DNA from: a bacterium
GTDB lineage: Bacteria > Patescibacteriota > Minisyncoccia > UBA6257 > GWB1-50-10
DNA length: 64,000 bases
Direction of reading: 5' to 3'
Assembly (NCBI GenBank): GCA_021812365.1
Contig: JAKANQ010000001.1
Location: 32,763 to 96,762, forward strand
In this document: in pieces, positions 11,258 through 33,642 of the stretch
Layout of the letters: each line of letters begins with the position of its first letter
Position numbering within the stretch: position 1 is the stretch's first letter
Position numbers and translations under genes: made by a program
Notes under the pieces: model-generated
The model's database searches: none
Seen by the model: only the letters and a program-made list of their open reading frames with translations
Told to the model about the DNA's origin: nothing

Positions 11258-14200
11258 ATGTCGGACACATTACTTAAAGTAGTTCCAAAACAGCGGAAAT
11301 ACTATCAGGATAAAGCTAATAGCCTGAGGCTACTTGCGGCAAAAGAATTGAGAGATGCCTTTTTGGCCTCCTATGATGAGGATATCTCTCGAAAAACTGT
11401 TTCCGAGTCTTGTTTGGCTGAGTATATTGATACCTTTCCCGATCAAGACTCAGTAAAAACTTTTGCCTTTAATCTTTTAATAAACAATAAAGCTATAGAC
11501 GACTTACTGAAGGGATATGATCCGATAGAAATATCATATGTTGGCTCTTATATAGGAGAGGCAACCTACAGATCCTTTATCAGTCCAACTGATATTTCTC
11601 GAGTAATGGATTTCTTGGCACCATCAAAGGCTATTGGGTATTTTTTCACACCACCGGAGGTAGCATTCTTAATGGCCGATAAAATAATATCTTCTACTGA
11701 CAAAAGTATTGATATCCTAGATCCGAGTGCTGGATACGGTTCGCTATTAGTCGCGTCCTTAATAGTAGCAAAGAATAAAGGGGCAAAATTTAGTTCTGTA
11801 ACCGCAATTGAAGTTGATTCATTTACCTCAAAGAATTTAAAAAAGATTCTTGAAAGAGTTGTCGAGCTATTAGAATTTGATACAAAGCTAAATATTATCA
11901 ATGAAAATGCCATAGGATATTTAGCCAATAGTTTAAACGGTTTATTCGGTCGCCCTGCAAGATTTCAAAAAATCATAATGAATCCACCCTATGGGAGGGT
12001 GAAGTTTTTGAAAAACTTTTTAACAAACAAAGAAACTAGAACCTCTAGCGCTTTATTATCTCACGAAGAACAAGGGATAAAAATAAAAACAAAAGTAGAA
12101 AAGCTAACAAGAGAATTAGATATCATTTCACAAAAGCTCGGTTTCGATTCCAACGTAAGAGAGTACTCGAAATTATTTGTTGCATTAAGCCTCTCAAACT
12201 TAGCTCCCGACGGCCGGATGAGCGTGATTACCCCAAGTACTTGGCTTGGTGATGTTGAGTCGTATGACTTAAGGAAATTAATCATTAACAACTCATACCT
12301 AGAGCAAATTTTACTTTTCCCTGAAGACAGCGGCTTATTCGAAACCGTGAATCAACACACGGCAGTCAGTATCTTGTCTAAACAAGAAAAGGAAATGTTC
12401 GAGATTGTATCCGATTACAATTTGAATGTAAAATTTAGCAGGTCAAACAAGGTTTACTACGCCGATATTAAAAAAAATAATCCACAGGGATTAAAAATCC
12501 CGAAGCATGGCTCGGAGCATGATGAAATCATTTCCAAAATTCAACAACATAAACCGATCCGGCTAATTGAAAACTTAAAGAACCTTAGGGGAGAAATAGA
12601 TCTCTCCTTAAACAAGGATCTAGTATCCAACAAAGACACTGGCCGTCGATTAATCAGAGGCGATCACGTGGAAAGGTACATACTGCATCCGACGACAAAA
12701 TCTAAACGAGATGGATTCATTGAAGAAAGTAGGCTTGGCGAGAAGTTTCGATCACTTCCTAAATTTAAAGATAGTTTAAATTTCAGAATTGTTGGACGCC
12801 AAGTTTCTTACTTAGATAAAAAGAGGCGCTTAGATTTTTGCCTTATTGATCCTGATAGTTTTGTGAGTAATTCTTGCAACTACCTTTACTTTAAGTCTGA
12901 CGACGGCCAAAAAAAACCGAGCAGAAAGTTACTATCTTTATTGGGGATATTAAATAGCTCTGTTCTTGAATGGTATTTCAGGCTTTACAATAGCAACAAC
13001 CATGTCGCTAACTACGAGATAGCAAATTTTCCAGTCTGCTTAGATAGTGAATTTATTCCGCTAATAGCGAAATCTACGGAATTTCTTATCGGGGCATATA
13101 AAGAAGAATCACGGGATGAATCTGTTTCTGGCATAGAAGATTTCCACGATGCCTTGGTTGGCGTGGCGTATGATCTTACGCCAATAATGATCGGTACTAT
13201 TATGGAGTCAATTGACCCCAAAAGAAAAGGTAGGGTTGTAAATTTTGCGGAACACATATGTGAAGGTAATCTACCTCTCGATTTTATGAAGAGCGATCAT
13301 TGGTTTAATCATTATGTCTCAACGCTGTCTGATTTAGACCAAGAGATAATTAAACATGTTCCCCAAGGAGGAAATTGGCAAGATATTCCCGAGGAAGTTC
13401 CTTCTCAAAGGCTACGGCAGATACGTGAAATGTCGAAAGAGCGCGGTGTTGTGCGAACTACCTATTATGGAAGACTAAGACCGGATCAACCATCATATAC
13501 CATTGCTACGTACTATAATCGTCCCGGTAATGGAACAAACATTCATCCATGGGAAGACAGGACGATTTCTTCGCGTGAAGCGGCAAGACTCCAATCTTTT
13601 CCCGATAGTTATATTTTCTTTGGATCTGAAGGCGGTATTAGAACTCAGATAGGAAATGCCGTCCCTCCGCTACTTGCTTATTCATTGGGAAAGCATATCG
13701 GAAGCCGCTATGGCTTTGGCACCTGCGTTGACGCCTTTGCCGGTGCCGGTGGTCTAAGTTGTGGATTAGAGCTTGCTGGCTGGAAAGTGATTGCGGCTAA
13801 CGACAATGATAAACACGCCTCAATAACTTACCGGGCGAATAGGCCCACGGAAAAGACGCCGACTAGTGATGACAAAAAGACTTTCTTTGTAGAGGGAGAT
13901 ATTAACAATAAGAAAATTTGGGAAGAACTTTTATCAGGAATCAAAAAGAAGCTCGGCAATAAAGAATTAGATCTGCTAGTAGGTGGCCCACCGTGCCAAG
14001 GGTTTTCCCACGCTGGATTCAGAAGAGAGGATGATATACGCAACGACCTAGCCTCTATATATTTGAAGCTAGCAATTAAGCTAAGTCCTAAGACCTTTAT
14101 TCTTGAAAATGTAGAGGGACTTCTCACATACAATTCCGGACAGGTAGTAAAGGATATCATTGAGGCTTTGACGGATATCGGCTATCACGTTGAAGCTCCA

Positions 14201-14521
14201 TGGGTACTTAACGCAGAGCAATTTGGCGTACCTCAAATGCGAAGACGAGTATTGATTGTTGCGAATAGAAAAGAAATTGTGCCAAATATGCCAAACTTAT
14301 TTCGCAAATGTGCTGGTCGACGTTCTGGAAAGGTTATTGAGCAACTACACTTAGCACCTCCCGTGACTGCGGGAGAGGCTCTTATAGATCTACCACCGCT
14401 AAAGAAAAGAAGATTTCTAAAGGGAATTAATGATATTAACAAATTGTATTCCCAATGGTTAAAAGGGCTAATTAGCGCTGAGAGATTCCTAGAATCGCGA
14501 TCTAAGATAAGGGAATCGTAG
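11258..14521 (+). CDS. Bifunctional DNA methyltransferase: m6A (gamma) domain fused to a circularly permuted m5C domain
   Basis: DPSAGYG and NPPY; then REAARLQSFPD and QIGNAVPP (motifs IX, X) precede DAFAGAGG (I), GGPPCQGFS (IV), ENV (VI), QMRRR (VIII). Confidence 0.92.
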   Translation: MSDTLLKVVPKQRKYYQDKANSLRLLAAKELRDAFLASYDEDISRKTVSESCLAEYIDTFPDQDSVKTFAFNLLINNKAIDDLLKGYDPIEISYVGSYIGEATYRSFISPTDISRVMDFLAPSKAIGYFFTPPEVAFLMADKIISSTDKSIDILDPSAGYGSLLVASLIVAKNKGAKFSSVTAIEVDSFTSKNLKKILERVVELLEFDTKLNIINENAIGYLANSLNGLFGRPARFQKIIMNPPYGRVKFLKNFLTNKETRTSSALLSHEEQGIKIKTKVEKLTRELDIISQKLGFDSNVREYSKLFVALSLSNLAPDGRMSVITPSTWLGDVESYDLRKLIINNSYLEQILLFPEDSGLFETVNQHTAVSILSKQEKEMFEIVSDYNLNVKFSRSNKVYYADIKKNNPQGLKIPKHGSEHDEIISKIQQHKPIRLIENLKNLRGEIDLSLNKDLVSNKDTGRRLIRGDHVERYILHPTTKSKRDGFIEESRLGEKFRSLPKFKDSLNFRIVGRQVSYLDKKRRLDFCLIDPDSFVSNSCNYLYFKSDDGQKKPSRKLLSLLGILNSSVLEWYFRLYNSNNHVANYEIANFPVCLDSEFIPLIAKSTEFLIGAYKEESRDESVSGIEDFHDALVGVAYDLTPIMIGTIMESIDPKRKGRVVNFAEHICEGNLPLDFMKSDHWFNHYVSTLSDLDQEIIKHVPQGGNWQDIPEEVPSQRLRQIREMSKERGVVRTTYYGRLRPDQPSYTIATYYNRPGNGTNIHPWEDRTISSREAARLQSFPDSYIFFGSEGGIRTQIGNAVPPLLAYSLGKHIGSRYGFGTCVDAFAGAGGLSCGLELAGWKVIAANDNDKHASITYRANRPTEKTPTSDDKKTFFVEGDINNKKIWEELLSGIKKKLGNKELDLLVGGPPCQGFSHAGFRREDDIRNDLASIYLKLAIKLSPKTFILENVEGLLTYNSGQVVKDIIEALTDIGYHVEAPWVLNAEQFGVPQMRRRVLIVANRKEIVPNMPNLFRKCAGRRSGKVIEQLHLAPPVTAGEALIDLPPLKKRRFLKGINDINKLYSQWLKGLISAERFLESRSKIRES

Positions 14522-16082
14522 TAGAATCGCTGAGGATAGAAAAAACTTGGCGTAACTTTTTGCTTAGAGCAGAGTACTTCTTAGAATCAATTTTCTTTGA
14601 TCGCAAGCCTGAGATATTGCTTTCTCTTTTTGTGCTAGAAACATTTGTTTTCATAGCCCTGTCCCAATTCTTCATATCTGGTGACAGAGGTATTTTCTTT
14701 GCTTCGGCAACAACCGCATCAATTTCGCCACTAAAGTTATCTACGTAGATCTTACGCACCTTCCTATCAACAATGGACTTATCTTGATAAAGCATAAGTT
14801 CTTCGAACGCTATGCGAATTATTCTGTTCGAAAGACTATTGCGAAGCTTAGTATTGATTGGCGTTTTACTAAAGCTTGCAAAGGTTAGGTCACTAGAATT
14901 AAGTTTGTCGAACTTAACTCTGAACAGCGCATATTCTGGATGGAGTATCGTCGTTAGATATTCTGAATAACCGTTCTCGAAAAGAGAGTAAAGCGTTCTA
15001 AGATAGAAGTCTTGCATCGCCCTCATGTAGTCACTCAACTCTTTGGCATCCCTATCGTTTTTGACCAAAAACTTGTACTTATCCCACAATGGTTGCACTT
15101 GCCAACTAGCCACAGATTCATTTGTGCGTTTTTCATAGTCAATTAATATCTTTATATCGCTTAAAAACATTCTGCGATTCTTACTACTATTACAAGGTCC
15201 GCAAGTTGGGAGAAATAAAGGAAGCTGTTTAAATCCACAAGCTAAAGGACCAACATGATCTGGACTTATTTTCTTAAGCTTTTTGCCGCATATGTAACAC
15301 CTTCCGGCGCCAGCGGAATTATATAGCGCGTCAGCGATCAGCCAATCGCCGTCAGACCATAATTCAAAAACCCTTCTATCGTGAAGATAAGATTTAAGGT
15401 TTTCGGGCGATCTTCCGGGGTCTTTTGTAGCTCTGCATAAGTGGCAATAGTCATGGAAACCATCTAAGCGATCTGGTGGATTGCACATGAAACCGGGACT
15501 CAGATAGACTGAACGAATATAATTACTTTTCTCAAAAGCTTCTTTGGAAAAACCAAATTTATTAAAGAAATCAGCTCTTTCGGGAAAAATCTTTTCTAGG
15601 CGCTCTTCAATCTGCTTTTTATTTTCGATTCCGCCAAGAATTTTGATCGCCTCGTCAATAGGCATCTTTTTTGAGAATAGAGAAGTTTTTGTTTCTCTGT
15701 TTAGATATTCTGTAAATACGTGATTGAGATAGAAATAGCCGACGTTTTGCGATTTCCCGCATAGACGACAAGGTCTATAGCCTGTGGGGCTAATCAACCT
15801 CGCCGTTATACTAAAACGATCATCAGAATTTCCTTTTCCCGGAACTTTAAGACTGTTCGCCTTTTTAACCCACCACTCAAAGCGCTCTACGTAATATTTG
15901 TAAAAAGAGGTTGATTTGCCAGAGCTGACTTGCCAATTTATTTTCCCATTTTCAGATATGGCGTTAGGCATTCCTTTGAAGTTGGGGTGTTTAACAATAA
16001 GGCCCATGTAATCAATGTAATTTTGATGGGCCTGATATTTCCCTCTGCCGTAAACTGGTTTTGCCATTTCCTTCACTTCCAT
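14502..16082 (-). CDS. Alw26I/Eco31I/Esp3I-family type IIS restriction endonuclease
   Basis: CRLCG, SPGFMCNPPDRLDGFH, DRRVFELWSDGDW, HNH-like CxxC...DHVGP...CxxCN; convergent with the dual MTase. Confidence 0.85.
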   Translation of the reverse strand: MEVKEMAKPVYGRGKYQAHQNYIDYMGLIVKHPNFKGMPNAISENGKINWQVSSGKSTSFYKYYVERFEWWVKKANSLKVPGKGNSDDRFSITARLISPTGYRPCRLCGKSQNVGYFYLNHVFTEYLNRETKTSLFSKKMPIDEAIKILGGIENKKQIEERLEKIFPERADFFNKFGFSKEAFEKSNYIRSVYLSPGFMCNPPDRLDGFHDYCHLCRATKDPGRSPENLKSYLHDRRVFELWSDGDWLIADALYNSAGAGRCYICGKKLKKISPDHVGPLACGFKQLPLFLPTCGPCNSSKNRRMFLSDIKILIDYEKRTNESVASWQVQPLWDKYKFLVKNDRDAKELSDYMRAMQDFYLRTLYSLFENGYSEYLTTILHPEYALFRVKFDKLNSSDLTFASFSKTPINTKLRNSLSNRIIRIAFEELMLYQDKSIVDRKVRKIYVDNFSGEIDAVVAEAKKIPLSPDMKNWDRAMKTNVSSTKRESNISGLRSKKIDSKKYSALSKKLRQVFSILSDSTTIPLS

Positions 16083-16146
16083 AACCGAAATATGCCACTT
16101 TTTAGGTGTTTTTACAATGTTGTTTTTGTTTTATCAAGAACACCAA

Positions 16147-16185
16147 AAAGAAAAACCACTGAAATTTATCAGTGGTTTTTCTTTC
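16147..16185. terminator. Intrinsic terminator downstream of the tRNA-Gln locus
   Basis: AAAGAAAAACCACTGA...TCAGTGGTTTTTCTTT inverted repeat. Confidence 0.65.
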
Positions 16186-16283
16186 TTGAATACGGCACTC
16201 AGCCGGTATGCTATGGACTGTATGGAGTGCTCTCGCTCTTCGGCTTGATCCACGCTTCTCGAGCGGGATAACCTATCACGAGT

Positions 16284-16338
16284 TGGCTGGGGGACTAGGA
16301 ATCGGACCTAGATTCACGGCTTCAAAGGCCGCTGTCCT
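16284..16338 (-). repeat. 3' portion of tRNA-Gln (from A21 through encoded CCA)
   Basis: 16286-16338 is identical to 16386-16438 (exact 100-bp offset); ends in CCA. Confidence 0.9.
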
Positions 16339-16386
16339 GTCGCTCGCGCAGTGAGGAAATAAATACATGAACATTTCTATGCATTG

Positions 16387-16457
16387 CTGGGGGACTAGGA
16401 ATCGGACCTAGATTCACGGCTTCAAAGGCCGCTGTCCTACCATTAGACGATCCCCCA
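16387..16457 (-). tRNA. tRNA-Gln(TTG), complete inner copy without encoded CCA
   Basis: TGGGGGATCGTCTAATGGTAGGACAGCGGCCTTTGAAGCCGTGAATCTAGGTCCGATTCCTAGTCCCCCAG folds as a cloverleaf with anticodon TTG. Confidence 0.92.
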
Positions 16458-16522
16458 GCAATACACACAAAAACATGTGCATGTATTATATTTCCGAACG
16501 AAACGTAGTGACAAGCGTAGCG

Positions 16523-16543
16523 CTACCATTAGACGATCCCCCA
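16523..16543 (-). repeat. 5' portion (21 nt) of tRNA-Gln
   Basis: TGGGGGATCGTCTAATGGTAG, identical to 16437-16457; preceded by a TTTACA-N17-TAAAGT promoter-like sequence. Confidence 0.85.
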
Positions 16544-16689
16544 ATGAAGATAACTTTATACAATAAACGCAAAAGTGTAAATGAAAAGTACGTTCATAGA
16601 GGAACGTCGTTTTATAAGGTTTCAACGGCATAAACCATGCGTTATTCGGGGAATATGATATAATCGAATTAATCATTTCGAACTATCCT

Positions 16690-17076
16690 ATGGCAAAAAT
16701 ATTCATCATCGATGACGAGCATCCGATACTTAAGATGTATGAGCGCACATTCACGCTCAACGGGTTTGAGACTGAAACGGCATCCGGCGGCGTTGAGGCA
16801 CTCGCATTGCTGAACAGCAAAAAAGAGAAGCCCGACCTTATCCTATTGGACGTAATGATGCCTGAGATGAACGGTATTGAGTTTCTTGAACGAATAAAGA
16901 AAGAAAACGAGTTGAAACATATACCCGTGGTCATACTTACGAACGTTGGCGGAAATGAAGGAGTAAATAAGAGAGCGATGGAACTGGGCGCCGACCTCTA
17001 TTTGGAGAAGGTCGCGCATGCTCCCGCGGAAATAGTTGAAGAAGTAAGAAGGCTTCTTGAAAGCAGGAAGATCTAA
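16690..17076 (+). CDS. Single-domain response regulator (receiver)
   Basis: IIDDE, PDLILLDVMMPEMNG, LT, K motifs. Confidence 0.92.
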   Translation: MAKIFIIDDEHPILKMYERTFTLNGFETETASGGVEALALLNSKKEKPDLILLDVMMPEMNGIEFLERIKKENELKHIPVVILTNVGGNEGVNKRAMELGADLYLEKVAHAPAEIVEEVRRLLESRKI

Positions 17077-17078
17077 GG

Positions 17079-19385
17079 TTAATTTGCGAGTGGTAAGGTG
17101 AAGCCGAAGGTCGTTCCTCCGTCAGGAATGCTCTTTTCGAGTTTAATCGTTCCTCCCATCGCTTCCACCATCAATTTTGAGATATAGAGACCAAGCCCCG
17201 TACCTTGAGCGACGCTTCGTGTCAGAATATTTGGAGCCGCTTGCTGGAACTTATGGAAAAGAAGGGATTGATATTCAAGCGGTATACCTACTCCAGTATC
17301 TGAGACGAGCACCTTTATAAAGTGTTCTTCTTTTTCTATCCTTACCTTTATTCCTCCTTGTGTGGTGTAATTGATGGCGTTGCCGATGAGATTCAATAAA
17401 ATTTCTTTTACGCGATCCCTGTCCGCTTTGACTGGCGGCAATGAAACAGATGGCTTTTCAAATTCAAGAATGAGTTTCTTTTCCGATGCCAATTCTTTCA
17501 CTCCCTTTATCGTTTCTTCTATGATATCGGGCAGTGAAAGCACCTCTGTCTTCATTGTGATTCTACCCTGTTCGAAACGCGATACGTTAAGGAAGTCATT
17601 CACTATCTTAATGAGCCGAACGCTTCCATTCTCGATGTCATCAAGCATTTGAAGCACCTCGGGGTCGTGAATCGTCTTTGTATAATAGCTTCGTATGAGA
17701 GAGATATTTCCCCGTATCGCAGTGAGCGGAGTCTTCAATTCATGAGACGCAATGGAGAAGAATTCCTCCCTGCTTCGTTCAAGAATCTTCGCTTCGGTGA
17801 TATCCTCCACCAAAATAACAGTACCAATTATCTCCTCATGATCTCTTATCATGGTGATGGGAGAGAAGAGCATACGCAAGAACTTGCCCTTGAACGCAAT
17901 CTCCTCCATTTCGATTATTTTTTTCTCCTTCTTCGCTTTTACCGCCTGCTCCGAAAGGTTGACGCTGTTCTGTAGCGCCTTCTGTATGTCATTCAACGCC
18001 CAGCCCGAGTGTGGCAAGCTAAATATTGTTTCAATCGCGGGATTCGCGATAAGTACATTATTTTTCGTATCCGTAAGAAGAAATCCGAGTGATAAGCTAT
18101 TTATTGAAGCAGTGAGGCGCGCCTGTTCCTCCCTTAATTCTCTTGTGCGGTCAGTGACCTTTTGTTCGGTGTTTGCTTTTTCCGCCTTCAATTTCTTATC
18201 CAGTTCCTCAAGTGTCGCGTTATTTCTTGCCAGTTCGGTAAGCTTTTTCGCGAGTTCGGCGGTTCTCTCCCTTACCTTCTCTTCCAAGGCGTGATACGAT
18301 TCAGCCAATTTTTTAGTCATCTGATTGAACGTTCCCGCTAAAAGGCCGATTTCATCGGAAGAGGAAACATGAATTTGCTGGTTCAGATCGCCGTCGATTA
18401 TCTTTTGGGTTATCTTCGTGAGTGCTACGATGGGCGCCGTGAACACTTCGGAAAAATAGAATGCAATAAGGGCTACCAGGAAGGAGGAAATGAGAAATAC
18501 GATAATAAGGTCATTTCTCAGAAAGTCGATGGACGCTAATGCCTCTGCCCTATCAATCTTTACCGCCATCCCCCATCCCGTAAGGTCGATATATCTTGTT
18601 GCGGCCAATACGTTCTGTCCGCGATAATCAACGGCGTCGGTATATACCGACTCTATCTTTGAAAACGATAGAATAATGGGGCTGTGAATCTCACTCGCGT
18701 TTACGGTGCGTTTGAACGCGGCCTCAGAATCAAATCTGAGCGGAGTCAAGAAGACTGCGTTGCCATTCGAATCAAGTTTCGCCAGCTCAGTCTCCCCCGT
18801 TTTTCCGAGGCCCGTATAGTCTTGAATGACATAAAAAAGCTCATCTGCCGGAAATGACATGATGAGAAGTCCGAGCGGTCTTCCCTCGAACATTATTTTA
18901 TTGGTTATGAAGAGTTTTATAGTTTGTTCCTTCTTGTCTTTGGCAAGCGTATACACATTGTCATTCTCATTTTGTAAGAAATCCTCATCGCTAGAGAATG
19001 AGTCTCCGATGATACTTGTATCAGCCGAGGCAAGTATGGTTCCCGTGGCATTCGTGATATATATCGACACATCGGCAAGATTCGAGCTTTCCGTTGCTAA
19101 GATTTTATTGACTGCTTTTCCATCCGCACTATTCTTCAGTCGCAGATATTTTTCGAGTGAGACGCGGAGTTCATACATATTCGACAAGTTAATGACGCGC
19201 TCCCTATCTTGCTGAAGTATCGTGTTTAATCGCTGTTCTTGTTTCGCCGCGGTGGCCGTTAGCTGGTCAATGGTCTTATTCGTTATCTCCGTTTTGAATG
19301 AATTGTATGAAAGAAAATTGACCACCAAGAGCGGAATGAGAGATATGAGAAGGAATAAGATGACGAGTTTCGGTTTAATTTTCAT
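17079..19385 (-). CDS. Sensor histidine kinase (Cache-like, HAMP, PAS-like, HisKA, HATPase)
   Basis: Two TMs, DEIGLLAGTFNQM HAMP, SHELKTPL H-box, NLIGNAINY, DTGVGI, GTGLGL. Confidence 0.93.
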   Translation of the reverse strand: MKIKPKLVILFLLISLIPLLVVNFLSYNSFKTEITNKTIDQLTATAAKQEQRLNTILQQDRERVINLSNMYELRVSLEKYLRLKNSADGKAVNKILATESSNLADVSIYITNATGTILASADTSIIGDSFSSDEDFLQNENDNVYTLAKDKKEQTIKLFITNKIMFEGRPLGLLIMSFPADELFYVIQDYTGLGKTGETELAKLDSNGNAVFLTPLRFDSEAAFKRTVNASEIHSPIILSFSKIESVYTDAVDYRGQNVLAATRYIDLTGWGMAVKIDRAEALASIDFLRNDLIIVFLISSFLVALIAFYFSEVFTAPIVALTKITQKIIDGDLNQQIHVSSSDEIGLLAGTFNQMTKKLAESYHALEEKVRERTAELAKKLTELARNNATLEELDKKLKAEKANTEQKVTDRTRELREEQARLTASINSLSLGFLLTDTKNNVLIANPAIETIFSLPHSGWALNDIQKALQNSVNLSEQAVKAKKEKKIIEMEEIAFKGKFLRMLFSPITMIRDHEEIIGTVILVEDITEAKILERSREEFFSIASHELKTPLTAIRGNISLIRSYYTKTIHDPEVLQMLDDIENGSVRLIKIVNDFLNVSRFEQGRITMKTEVLSLPDIIEETIKGVKELASEKKLILEFEKPSVSLPPVKADRDRVKEILLNLIGNAINYTTQGGIKVRIEKEEHFIKVLVSDTGVGIPLEYQSLLFHKFQQAAPNILTRSVAQGTGLGLYISKLMVEAMGGTIKLEKSIPDGGTTFGFTLPLAN

Positions 19386-32615: not shown

Positions 32616-33642
32616 AGAAAAGGTGCTTATTGTTACGGATGCATGGCGGCCTCAAAAGAATGGCGTGGTCATCGCATTGGAAAAAATGAAAGAGCTTCTT
32701 GAGAAAAAAGGGTATGACGTGTCAATCGCCCATCCTTATCTTTCTTCATTCAGGCTTCCGCTCTTTTTCTATCCCGAAATAGAATTTTCCATTTTTCCCT
32801 CTCGAATCATTCGCGCCATGGTTGCGCAAGAAATGCCCGATTATATCCACATCGCTACCGAAGGGCCGCTTGGTCTTGCGGCACGCAATCATTGCGTAAG
32901 AAATAAGATACGCTTTACCACCTCGTACCATACTCACTACCCCATCTACTTGAAGCTAAGGTTCGGTTTTCTATTTGATGCGGCATACCGGTATATTCGA
33001 TGGCTTCATCGTGATGCAGTACGGACGATGGTGGCCACTGAAACCATGAAGGATGAACTTCAGAAGAGGAAATTTGAGCACCTTGTAATTTGGCCGCTCG
33101 GCGTTGATATAGATTTTTTCAAGAAAAACGAGCACGCAGTACCTCCTGATTATTTGAAAAATGCCAAGAAACCAATTTTCATATATTTTGGAAGGGTTGC
33201 AATCGAAAAAAACGTGGAAGCGTTCCTGAGATGCGATTTACCGGGAACAAAACTCGTTGTGGGCGGAGGGCCACAATGTGCGGAGCTTAAAAGGAAATAC
33301 GGCGATAATGCGTTATTTACGCATATGGAGGGCTATAAAAAAGATGAGGAATTAATCGATCTTTTGTCGCTCGCCGATGTATTCGTATTTCCATCCAAGA
33401 CGGAAACCTTTGGCCTTGTCGCACTCGAGGCTCTTGCCTGTGAGCTTCCCGTCGCCGCATATAATGTCATGGGACCAAAAGATATCGTAAGAAATGACAT
33501 CGATGGCATATTGGATGATGACCTCAAAAAAGCTGCACTCCGGTGCCTTGCGCTTCCTCGGAAGCGGCTTAGGGAACGAGCTCTCACATTTTCATGGAAT
33601 AACTCAGCGGAAACGTTCGTAAATAATCTCGCTAAGAATTAG
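32605..33642 (+). CDS. GT4 glycosyltransferase
   Basis: TDAWRPQKNGVV, HIATEGPLG, FPSKTETFGLVALEALAC. Confidence 0.9.
   Translation: MANREKVLIVTDAWRPQKNGVVIALEKMKELLEKKGYDVSIAHPYLSSFRLPLFFYPEIEFSIFPSRIIRAMVAQEMPDYIHIATEGPLGLAARNHCVRNKIRFTTSYHTHYPIYLKLRFGFLFDAAYRYIRWLHRDAVRTMVATETMKDELQKRKFEHLVIWPLGVDIDFFKKNEHAVPPDYLKNAKKPIFIYFGRVAIEKNVEAFLRCDLPGTKLVVGGGPQCAELKRKYGDNALFTHMEGYKKDEELIDLLSLADVFVFPSKTETFGLVALEALACELPVAAYNVMGPKDIVRNDIDGILDDDLKKAALRCLALPRKRLRERALTFSWNNSAETFVNNLAKN

Follow-up and report, generated by a model that had tools for sequence, protein, structure and literature searches.

Introduction

Two harmless ways for a selfish insert to occupy an essential gene are already known, namely self-splicing, as in introns and inteins, and the restoration of one end of the gene, as in integrase islands and in the mobile endonuclease open reading frames (mORFs) of fungal mitochondria. 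The integrase islands found at tRNA genes encode an integrase and are one-sided, with duplication of the attachment (att) sequence. The mORFs are described as entering genes and bringing along, from a foreign source, a copy of the gene end that they displace, the native piece being left in place, as in atp6 of Allomyces and in atp6, atp9, cox2 and nad3 of Glomus (PMC3630166). Another described case is T4 SegB, a free-standing GIY-YIG homing endonuclease encoded in a tRNA cluster, which spreads with the neighbouring tRNA genes (PMC2330249; PMC13096335), and which is reported to recognise a T-psi-C motif and to lie between genes (PMC2330249). Here we analyse a 64,000-nt stretch of DNA (hereafter the window; positions 32,763 to 96,762 of contig JAKANQ010000001.1, GenBank assembly GCA_021812365.1) from a bacterium of the Patescibacteriota (GTDB lineage Minisyncoccia; UBA6257; GWB1-50-10), in which a complete tRNA-Gln gene, flanked by two complementary arms, sits in the D-loop of a second tRNA-Gln gene that is split into two pieces. 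This arrangement is referred to as a nest.

Like the integrase islands, the insert sits in a tRNA gene, is accompanied by a partial duplication of the tRNA and restores the gene; unlike in them, both ends are duplicated, the 186 bp of the insert hold no integrase, and the break is in the D-loop and not in the 3′ part. An earlier, sequence-only reading of the window had already set the locus apart from the usual integrase pattern, and the duplications at both ends of a 186-bp insert devoid of any open reading frame (ORF) agree with this. The likeness to mORFs, as these are characterised in the account cited, lies in an apparently selfish insert that interrupts a gene, brings a replacement, leaves a native remnant and is absent from close relatives, with GIY-YIG or LAGLIDADG endonuclease ORFs as the presumed drivers (PMC3630166). 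The nest differs from mORFs in that its target is a bacterial tRNA gene, that the whole gene is replaced with remnants on both sides, that the window copy lacks an ORF and has long complementary arms, and that forms related to it have short terminal inverted repeats and ORF-less mini copies. With SegB the similarity is that of a GIY-YIG gene among tRNA genes, the SegB target being itself a tRNA-gene motif; the abstract on SegB (PMC2330249) mentions neither nested or duplicated tRNA halves nor inverted-repeat arms, and the cassettes considered here are known from their sequence. In a literature search that barely covered subscription journals, no description of nested tRNA genes or of tRNA-gene endonuclease cassettes in these bacteria was found.

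The reading that we prefer, to which we give a probability of about 0.58, is that the insert belongs, as an ORF-less (non-autonomous) member, to a family of selfish cassettes whose targets are tRNA genes and which carry a replacement tRNA. Its basis is the anatomy of the locus, its recurrence, a pair of filled and plain sites, endonuclease genes at the same site in relatives, one pair of ORF-less and ORF-bearing forms with shared ends, and the absence of the known tRNA-splicing enzymes. The sequence-only reading had proposed a tiny insertion element that targets tRNA genes and complements the one into which it inserts, and the filled/plain pair, the recurrence, the foreign inner tRNAs of several nests and the endonuclease-bearing relatives all fit this proposal. 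If true, a whole replacement tRNA carried in the insert's own hairpin would be a third harmless way for a selfish insert to reside in an essential gene.

Anatomy of the tRNA-Gln nest

The nest lies on the minus strand of the window, and its parts are given below in the order of transcription.

16553-16581, minus strand: promoter-like TTTACA-17-TAAAGT of the outer (resident) gene, predicted, 9 of 12 consensus matches
16523-16543, minus strand: outer 5′ piece, nt 1-21 of tRNA-Gln(UUG), an exact 21-nt repeat of the start of the inner tRNA
16458-16522, minus strand: 5′ arm (s1), 65 nt, defined by sequence, fold and inverted repeats
16485-16514, minus strand: promoter-like TTGTCA-18-TATAAT within s1, predicted, 11 of 12 consensus matches
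16386-16457, minus strand: inner complete tRNA-Gln(UUG) without encoded CCA, found by ARAGORN and by Rfam (61.3 bits at 16387-16457)
16339-16385, minus strand: 3′ arm (s2), 47 nt, defined by sequence, fold and inverted repeats
16284-16338, minus strand: outer 3′ piece, nt 20-73 of tRNA-Gln plus encoded CCA (16286-16284), an exact 53-nt repeat of the inner tRNA
16145-16186, minus strand: terminator-like hairpin of 18 pairs with a T run, about 100 nt downstream of the nest

The nested layout had been claimed from the letters of the window, and its coordinates were borne out by the sequence, by ARAGORN and Rfam, and by direct repeats that are exact over 53 nt (16286-16338 = 16386-16438) and 21 nt (16437-16457 = 16523-16543). 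Of the two spacer lengths given then, 65 nt was right for s1, and the ~48 nt of the other has to be corrected to 47 nt for s2. The promoter-like TTTACA-N17-TAAAGT was found where it had been placed, at 16581-16553, about 10 nt upstream of nt 1 of the outer tRNA, and the resident gene sits in its native promoter/terminator context. The outer 5′ piece comprises the 5′ strand of the acceptor stem, the 5′ strand of the D-stem and the D-loop up to U20/A21/G22, and the insertion point in the D-loop of the resident tRNA-Gln(UUG) is between U20 and A21. The outer pieces overlap by AG, and deletion of 186 nt would yield the inner sequence plus CCA, so that the exact repeats confirm the earlier statement that such a removal rebuilds the tRNA. 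Only 112 nt of the insert are non-tRNA sequence, and no ORF was found within its 186 bp, so that the endonuclease ORF of homing cassettes is missing from the window copy. The source genome (G000; 626 kb, 25 contigs, 98.2% complete) has 42 tRNAs, about 4 of which encode CCA.

The 5′ arm is composed of a terminal hairpin (GCG-CUA-CGC), a strand of the closing stem, the conserved CGTTCGGAAAT, the 5′ strand of the long stem and a leader (..TATTGC) that prolongs the inner acceptor stem. The 3′ arm begins with a trailer (AATGCA..) paired with this leader, followed by the 3′ strand of the long stem, the conserved ATTTCCTCAC and, at the terminus, GCGAGCG, which is paired with the first bases of the insert. 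The insert is thus a small, non-coding unit with inverted-repeat ends, its termini CGCT-A-CGC and GCG-AGCG being paired, as is typical of miniature inverted-repeat transposable elements (MITEs). The spacers had been called imperfect inverted repeats of each other, which holds for the repeats I2 (21 nt at 86%) and I4 (20 nt at 80%). When the 260 nt of the nest were folded as RNA, the inner cloverleaf was placed at the tip of the long s1-s2 stem, as had been foreseen, with all of it enclosed by the outer acceptor stem; the energy was -102.8 kcal/mol, as against -76.4 ± 5.0 kcal/mol for shuffled sequences (z = -5.3), and none of 200 shuffles was as good. The 184-nt insert folded alone as single-stranded DNA (ssDNA) adopted the same fold (z = -7.5).

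Filled and plain sites in one genus

In G001, a genome of the same genus, the tRNA-Gln gene is plain, and the flanks that lie outside the outer pieces of the nest of G005, also of this genus, are contiguous around it (22 nt upstream and 35 nt downstream). Counted together with the adjoining tRNA parts, these flanks of G005 and G001 are 92.7% identical over 41 nt and 88.8% identical over 89 nt, so that an otherwise identical site is filled in G005 and plain in G001. Since G001 carries a plain gene with the immediate flanks of G005, we concluded that the outer gene is the resident one and that the 186 bp were inserted. Furthermore, the plain tRNA-Gln of G003, of the same genus, encodes CCA, like the outer 3′ piece of the window and unlike its inner copy. 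As in a replacement cassette, the insert carries a copy of the displaced gene and the native part is kept as a remnant. The plain genes may never have been invaded, or they may have lost the insert precisely, by recombination between the 21-nt and the 53-nt direct repeats.

Nests recur in other genomes and in metagenomes

The other tRNA-Gln gene of the source genome (CUG; contig C5:2130-2480, plus strand) has the same nest layout and the same arm motifs as the window (..CTCGTTCGGAAAT.. and ..CTTCCTCTC..), with a 5′ outer half that is mutated and degenerate and a 3′ outer half broken by two GC-rich hairpins of ~20 nt. When the 260-nt nest was used as query against 60 relatives, 258 of its 260 nt were matched at 83% in G005, in which both outer halves are intact. 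Nests with the same motifs and with truncated or mutated outer halves were present in G030, G008, G031 and G329, and the motifs CGCTTGYC and CGYTCGGAA are common to the nests of G005, G008, G031 and G329.

The pattern TCGGAA-N20-50-tRNA-Gln start was found in 10 of the 401 genomes of the order, i.e., in the source, in 7 of the 42 other family members and in two genomes outside the family, of which G219 has the 5′ piece and s1 only and G291 was judged to be a chance match. A pattern for the 5′ arm (CGCTTGYC..CGYTCGGAA) was found in 6 of 96 family genomes, five of them with nests; the sixth match, in G449, is not at a tRNA. The matches of G291 and G449, both outside a nest context, were set aside as doubtful. 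In G449 (contig 31, ~1480-1540; locus L062) the 3′-arm motif TTCCCTCAC is directly followed by the 5′-arm motifs GCTTGCCC..CGTTCGGAAA, away from any tRNA, and this arrangement could be a permuted or solo arm module, or chance. A scan of genome contigs with CGCTTGYC-N6-20-CGYTCGGAA was discarded: it gave at least 120 loci, and the 80 that were listed, in unrelated phyla, are presumably due to chance.

The metagenome scan for TCGGAA-N20-50-tRNA-Gln start gave 94 loci, mostly with a mere TCGGAA near some tRNA-Gln. An outer fragment was detected in 12 of them (the 5′ piece in 8, the 3′ piece in 8, both in 4), which include three duplicate pairs, L240=L261 being of another type. Full metagenomic nests are those of L201=L255, L228 and L257, and further nests with the arm motifs are L232=L277 and L224. 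The search for comparable structures thus showed that nests recur in the source genome, in a same-genus species, in at least four other genera and in several metagenome contigs. No synteny beyond the tRNA region was detected between the window locus (±1.5 kb, tblastx) and 19 loci.

Endonuclease-bearing relatives occupy the same site

In G012, G036 and G049 the same D-loop site holds a GIY-YIG ORF and a full tRNA-Gln between the outer pieces. The order in G012 and G036 is outer 5′ piece, two small GC hairpins, GIY-YIG ORF, full tRNA-Gln, spacer and outer 3′ piece, and the arrangement in G049 is similar. In G019 a 22-nt 5′ piece is followed by a 232-aa LAGLIDADG ORF and then by a full tRNA-Gln(CUG). 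The Pfam scores were 48-54 bits for GIY-YIG (G012, G036, G049) and 40.5 bits for LAGLIDADG_3 (G019). The GIY-YIG ORFs of loci L024, L030 and L015 (G012, G036, G049) have no stop before the inner tRNA and read through (..LVSKAAGSSNGR..); the LAGLIDADG ORF of G019 ends just ahead of its tRNA.

The 3′ spacer of the ORF cassettes is the reverse complement of the 5′ end of the cassette plus the last 7-14 nt of the tRNA-adjacent ORF. Loss of the ORF interior would therefore leave two spacers that are complementary over their whole length, which is the architecture seen in the window. The ends TTGCCCCGCCAAAT / ATTTGGCGGGGT are identical in the ORF-less nest of G052 (L013) and in the GIY-YIG cassette of G049 (L015), so that in this sister subfamily, of CCCCGCC type, ORF-less and ORF-bearing forms have common ends. 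In addition, L030 has two ORF-less mini copies with the ends of the cassette and L024 has one; they measure ~45-57 nt and lie inside or beside the outer 3′ half.

The source genome encodes four small GIY-YIG proteins. GIY-YIG ORFs (PF01541, 97-98 aa) are present in it at tRNA-Ser(GCU) and tRNA-Tyr (C15:160-575, plus strand, and C6:1-400, minus strand), where they lie between a duplicated 27-nt 5′ fragment and the full tRNA, with a GC palindrome within or after each 27-nt fragment. A 3′-side variant was observed in L055 (G241 contig 8), in which a full tRNA-Gln(CUG) is followed by a GIY-YIG ORF and then by a duplicated 3′ tRNA fragment, a second full tRNA copy being located 1.3 kb away. The endonucleases of the ORF-bearing relatives may be regarded as candidate site-specific nucleases for the D-loop DNA of tRNA genes.

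As to the GC palindromes of the source genome, 3 of 4 of the CCTGCC..GGCAGG type and 8 of 60 of the CCCCGC..GCGGGG type are located within 300 nt of a tRNA, a zone that makes up ~4.5% of the genome. In relatives, GC palindromes sit inside the decayed tRNA halves at several positions.

The two arms co-vary between nests

The arms were compared in twelve nests, seven genomic and five metagenomic. The inner acceptor stem is extended in all twelve, and in most of them it continues as a long s1-s2 stem; in L228 the pairing is limited to the acceptor-stem extension. The mean duplex energy was -32.9 kcal/mol for cognate arms as against -18.3 ± 6.2 kcal/mol for non-cognate ones, and the cognate arm ranked first in 9 of the 12 nests, the exceptions being two close relatives whose arms pair with each other's and the weakly paired L228. 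RNAalifold, run on seven nests, predicted about 12 pairs that prolong the inner acceptor stem, with double changes. Judged from these sequences, s1 and s2 co-evolve. Further recurrent features are a stem that closes the two ends of the insert, a small hairpin (GCG-NNN-CGC or AAGC-AAA-GCTT) that directly follows the 5′ junction, the long stem, and a pyrimidine-rich internal loop with CGYTCGG on the 5′ side and CTCAC on the 3′ side.

The arm stems of the twelve nests contain 29 G-U pairs as against 9 A-C mismatches. This count was rejected as a test between an RNA and a DNA hairpin, since it is biased by the folding rule and comes from sequences that are too closely related, and a hairpin of the top DNA strand gives the same pattern. 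The promoter-like TTGTCA-18-TATAAT of s1 lies ~27 nt upstream of the inner tRNA, and G005 has one at the same position (10 of 12 matches). An internal promoter was rejected as a feature of the family; the same rule finds it in only 2 of the 12 nests, which is why we consider it specific to this genus.

Foreign inner tRNAs and decayed outer halves

The inner and outer copies differ in G329, L228, L232 and contig 2 of G052. In G329 the arms are ~95% identical to those of G031, and the inner tRNA is a variant unlike the decayed outer halves that enclose it. In L228 the outer acceptor has an A-U pair where the inner one has G-C; since the change affects both strands, the outer copy must once have been an independent working tRNA. 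In L226, where the outer tRNA has a further such arm ahead of it, a nest lies within a nest.

Intact outer halves were found only in G000 (UUG) and G005, those of L201 being nearly so. They are decayed in 9 of the 11 other nests, namely G000 (CUG), G030, G008, G031, G329, L228, L257, L232 and L224, so that the conservation expected of the exons of an intron is lacking, the halves being degenerate, truncated or interrupted in most related nests. The split outer copy is probably a dead shell and not a spliced gene, and the inner tRNA-Gln(UUG) is predicted to be the working gene.

A possible life cycle of the insert

Under the cassette reading, the resident promoter would drive transcription of the inner tRNA, perhaps joined in this genus by the promoter-like site of s1, and the tRNA would be released by RNase P and 3′ processing, possibly after cleavage of the leader-trailer stem by RNase III. 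RNase III is present in the source genome, and a cut in the long stem could free the inner pre-tRNA without joining the outer halves. The latter would be non-functional remnants, and their identity with the inner copy in this genome would be due to recent insertion or to conversion of one repeat by the other. Loss of the ORF would have left two fully complementary arms, and thereby the long stem. Mobility would depend on an endonuclease acting in trans, or the copy may be immobile; insertion by homing repair and insertion by a transposon-like step at the inverted-repeat ends are both conceivable.

A broader reading, which we regard as possible and put forward tentatively, is that these loci represent an undescribed class of mobile DNA, bounded by inverted repeats, that invades the tRNA genes of these ultra-small bacteria and spares its host by means of a full replacement tRNA in the loop of its own hairpin. 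Its autonomous forms would carry GIY-YIG or LAGLIDADG ORFs, ORF-less nests, tRNA-less hairpins and palindromes of 18-20 nt would be non-autonomous or minimal forms, and repeated invasion would generate tRNA loci built like Russian dolls. A bolder branch would have the intact outer halves of this genus give a two-piece or rejoined tRNA. If the preferred reading is true, it would explain the frequent tRNA fragments and GC palindromes around tRNA genes in these genomes, and it would bear on the annotation of half-tRNAs and pseudo-tRNAs in such metagenome-assembled genomes, on horizontal tRNA replacement between lineages, and on the long-standing proposal that mobile elements gave rise to split tRNA genes and to those with introns.

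Alternative explanations

Three sets of observations weigh against the cassette reading. First, the outer and inner copies are 100% identical in both G000 and G005, yet the tRNAs of the two species differ at six positions of the T-arm. A plain dead scar does not predict perfect outer halves in these two genomes, and this is the main point that the reading leaves unexplained; possible causes are gene conversion between the repeats, two recent insertions whose donors were conspecific, and selection acting on the outer copy. Second, no ORF-bearing cassette with window-type ends (CGCTTGYC...CGYTCGGAA) was found in the 96 family genomes, so that the link to nucleases runs through the site, the layout and the sister subfamily and not through sequence; in a comparison by eye, without formal alignment, no similarity was seen between the window arms and the ORF cassettes of G012, G036, G049, G019 and the source genome. 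Third, the arm motifs CGTTCGGAAAT ... ATTTCCTCTC also flank a tRNA-less hairpin, in contig C22 of the source genome and, after the nest, in L204, and the hairpin module may therefore be an element of its own. At C22:36213-36340, 3′ of tRNA-Lys(CUU), there are two tandem copies of the window-type motifs, one of them around the tRNA-less hairpin, in an orientation opposite to that of the tRNA-Lys and bordered by copies of the tRNA tail, both forward and reversed.

The second and third sets also speak for the alternative that survives best, in which the hairpin module (CGYTCGGAA / TTCCTCNC arms) is an independent MITE-like or ssDNA-hairpin element, the tRNA is cargo or was captured, and some enzyme other than the homing endonucleases moves the module into tRNA genes. 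MITEs are non-autonomous derivatives of DNA transposons, and the insert shares with them its small size, its lack of coding sequence, its inverted-repeat ends and its presence in several copies per genome; the sister subfamily is MITE-like in that its ORF-less form has the same ends as its ORF-bearing form (G052 vs G049). Such a module would also suit the closing of the arms to one hairpin with paired termini, as ssDNA too, and the end-only GC palindromes at several positions of decayed halves, which homology-driven homing does not explain. We nevertheless consider it unlikely that the module is independent of the endonucleases, because in other genera GIY-YIG or LAGLIDADG ORFs are found at this same site, within the same layout of outer 5′ piece, full tRNA with extended acceptor stem, complementary 3′ arm and outer 3′ piece, and the CCCCGCC subfamily joins both forms through its ends. 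Unlike MITEs, moreover, the nests carry a functional-looking tRNA, are associated with homing-type nucleases and not with known transposases, and no consistent target-site duplication was apparent among them: the overlap at the insert is a 2-nt AG in G000 and a 1-nt T in G005, and none is evident for the mini copies of L024 and L030.

The nest could also be the sum of two independent one-sided events at the same gene, one of which left a 5′ cassette relic, made of s1 and the duplicated nt 1-21, and the other a distinct 3′ element, made of s2 and the duplicated nt 20-73. Forms with a 5′ fragment only (tRNA-Ser and tRNA-Tyr of the source, the CUG gene of G003, G219 and G019) and the 3′-side GIY-YIG cassette of G241, with its duplicated 3′ fragment, show what such events would look like. 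This origin is quite improbable for the nest, in which the complementarity of s1 and s2 extends over ~45 nt and the two arms change together from lineage to lineage, both duplications converge on one D-loop position, and the arms were gained or lost together in the G005/G001 pair.

The sequence-only reading had also considered an intron-like unit yielding two tRNAs, the inner one released by RNase P and 3′ processing and the outer one formed by excision and ligation, or working as a split tRNA held together by the arm stem. The non-canonical tRNA introns and split tRNAs of archaea are characterised by the bulge-helix-bulge motif and by the enzymes EndA and RtcB. As in these, the intervening sequence is outside the anticodon loop and complementary sequences join the halves; the differences are that a full tRNA copy lies inside, that the outer halves decay and that the host is a bacterium without these enzymes or a visible motif. 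EndA (PF01974) was absent from the 98.2%-complete source genome and was detected in 4 archaeal control genomes, and RtcB (PF01139) was absent from the source genome and was detected in 10 control genomes. At the junctions no bulge-helix-bulge was seen by eye, with no dedicated program used, there being no pair of 3-nt bulges around a 4-bp helix. At E ≤ 1, Rfam matched no intron family, group I included, and no ribozyme family within 15500-17500, the insert is in the D-loop and not in the anticodon loop where group I introns of tRNA genes reside, and there is no complementarity between AGCGC, with which the insert starts, and AGGAC, with which the 3′ exon starts. What would suit splicing are the perfect outer halves of G000 and G005 in the face of six differences between the tRNAs of the species, a fold that juxtaposes the outer halves, and the excess of G-U pairs over A-C mismatches, a weak indication that is biased by the folding rule and equally expected of a top-strand DNA hairpin. 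With neither EndA nor RtcB, with no bulge-helix-bulge seen, and with 9 of the 11 other nests having outer halves that are truncated, mutated or interrupted by further inserts, it is very improbable that splicing yields two tRNAs, and this part of the sequence-only reading was not supported.

An origin in situ, in which the leader-trailer stem is a native processing structure and the outer pieces were produced locally by duplication or faulty repair, without a mobile element, is barely plausible. An extended acceptor stem is indeed common among the tRNA-Gln genes of the order, even where no outer pieces are visible (G010, G012), but local errors are at odds with a filled/plain pair with common flanks, with foreign inner tRNAs in several nests, with the layered nest of L226 and with endonuclease ORFs occupying the same place.

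The possibility of a misassembly was checked with four DNA runs (X1-X4) of one study in which the stretch is present; their contigs were made with a different assembler, and the source sample is possibly among them. Among RNA runs, the share of the sampled words that was recovered reached at most 0.08. Contigs covering 16050-16312, 16309-16438 (run X4) and 16433-16800 match the window with 0 differences, and since these independent contigs cover all the junctions, every junction of the nest is reproduced. No single contig of runs X1-X4 spans the whole nest. Runs X1-X3 have no contig over 16336-16361, a gap that is uninformative and is covered by the X4 contig. No contig joins 16523 to 16337, as a plain allele would, which says nothing about polymorphism since contigs lose rare variants. 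A repeat-induced misjoin, which the lack of a contig or read across the whole nest and repeats longer than common k-mers might suggest, is hardly credible when all the junctions are present without differences in the contigs of another assembler, the nest is the sole path that uses each observed junction once, and the same structure is found at the second tRNA-Gln locus and in many other assemblies. This recurrence across loci and genomes is a stronger argument against an artefact than the contigs are.

In runs X1-X3 a second organism was also observed, in which the outer 5′ piece is joined to the inner tRNA (window 16454-16524) through a different spacer of 36 nt in place of the 65-nt arm (one contig per run, depth 8-17).

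Genes adjacent to the nest

Downstream of the nest there are genes for an Alw26I-type restriction endonuclease (14502-16082, minus strand) and a fused N6A/m5C methyltransferase (11258-14521, plus strand). It was considered whether the outer 3′ piece is an att repeat of this abutting restriction-modification island, and this was rejected, as the 3′ part of the tRNA has no additional copy on contig C9 and G005 has a nest without such an island. The first ~25 nt past the outer 3′ piece (within 16240-16283) resemble the flank that follows the differently armed nest of L201 on a metagenome contig, and an island using tRNA-Gln may have its conserved end here. Upstream of the nest a response regulator (16690-17076, plus strand) and a Cache/HAMP/PAS histidine kinase (17079-19385, minus strand) are encoded, and the ORF of the response regulator starts ~110 nt from the outer promoter-like site, on the opposite strand.

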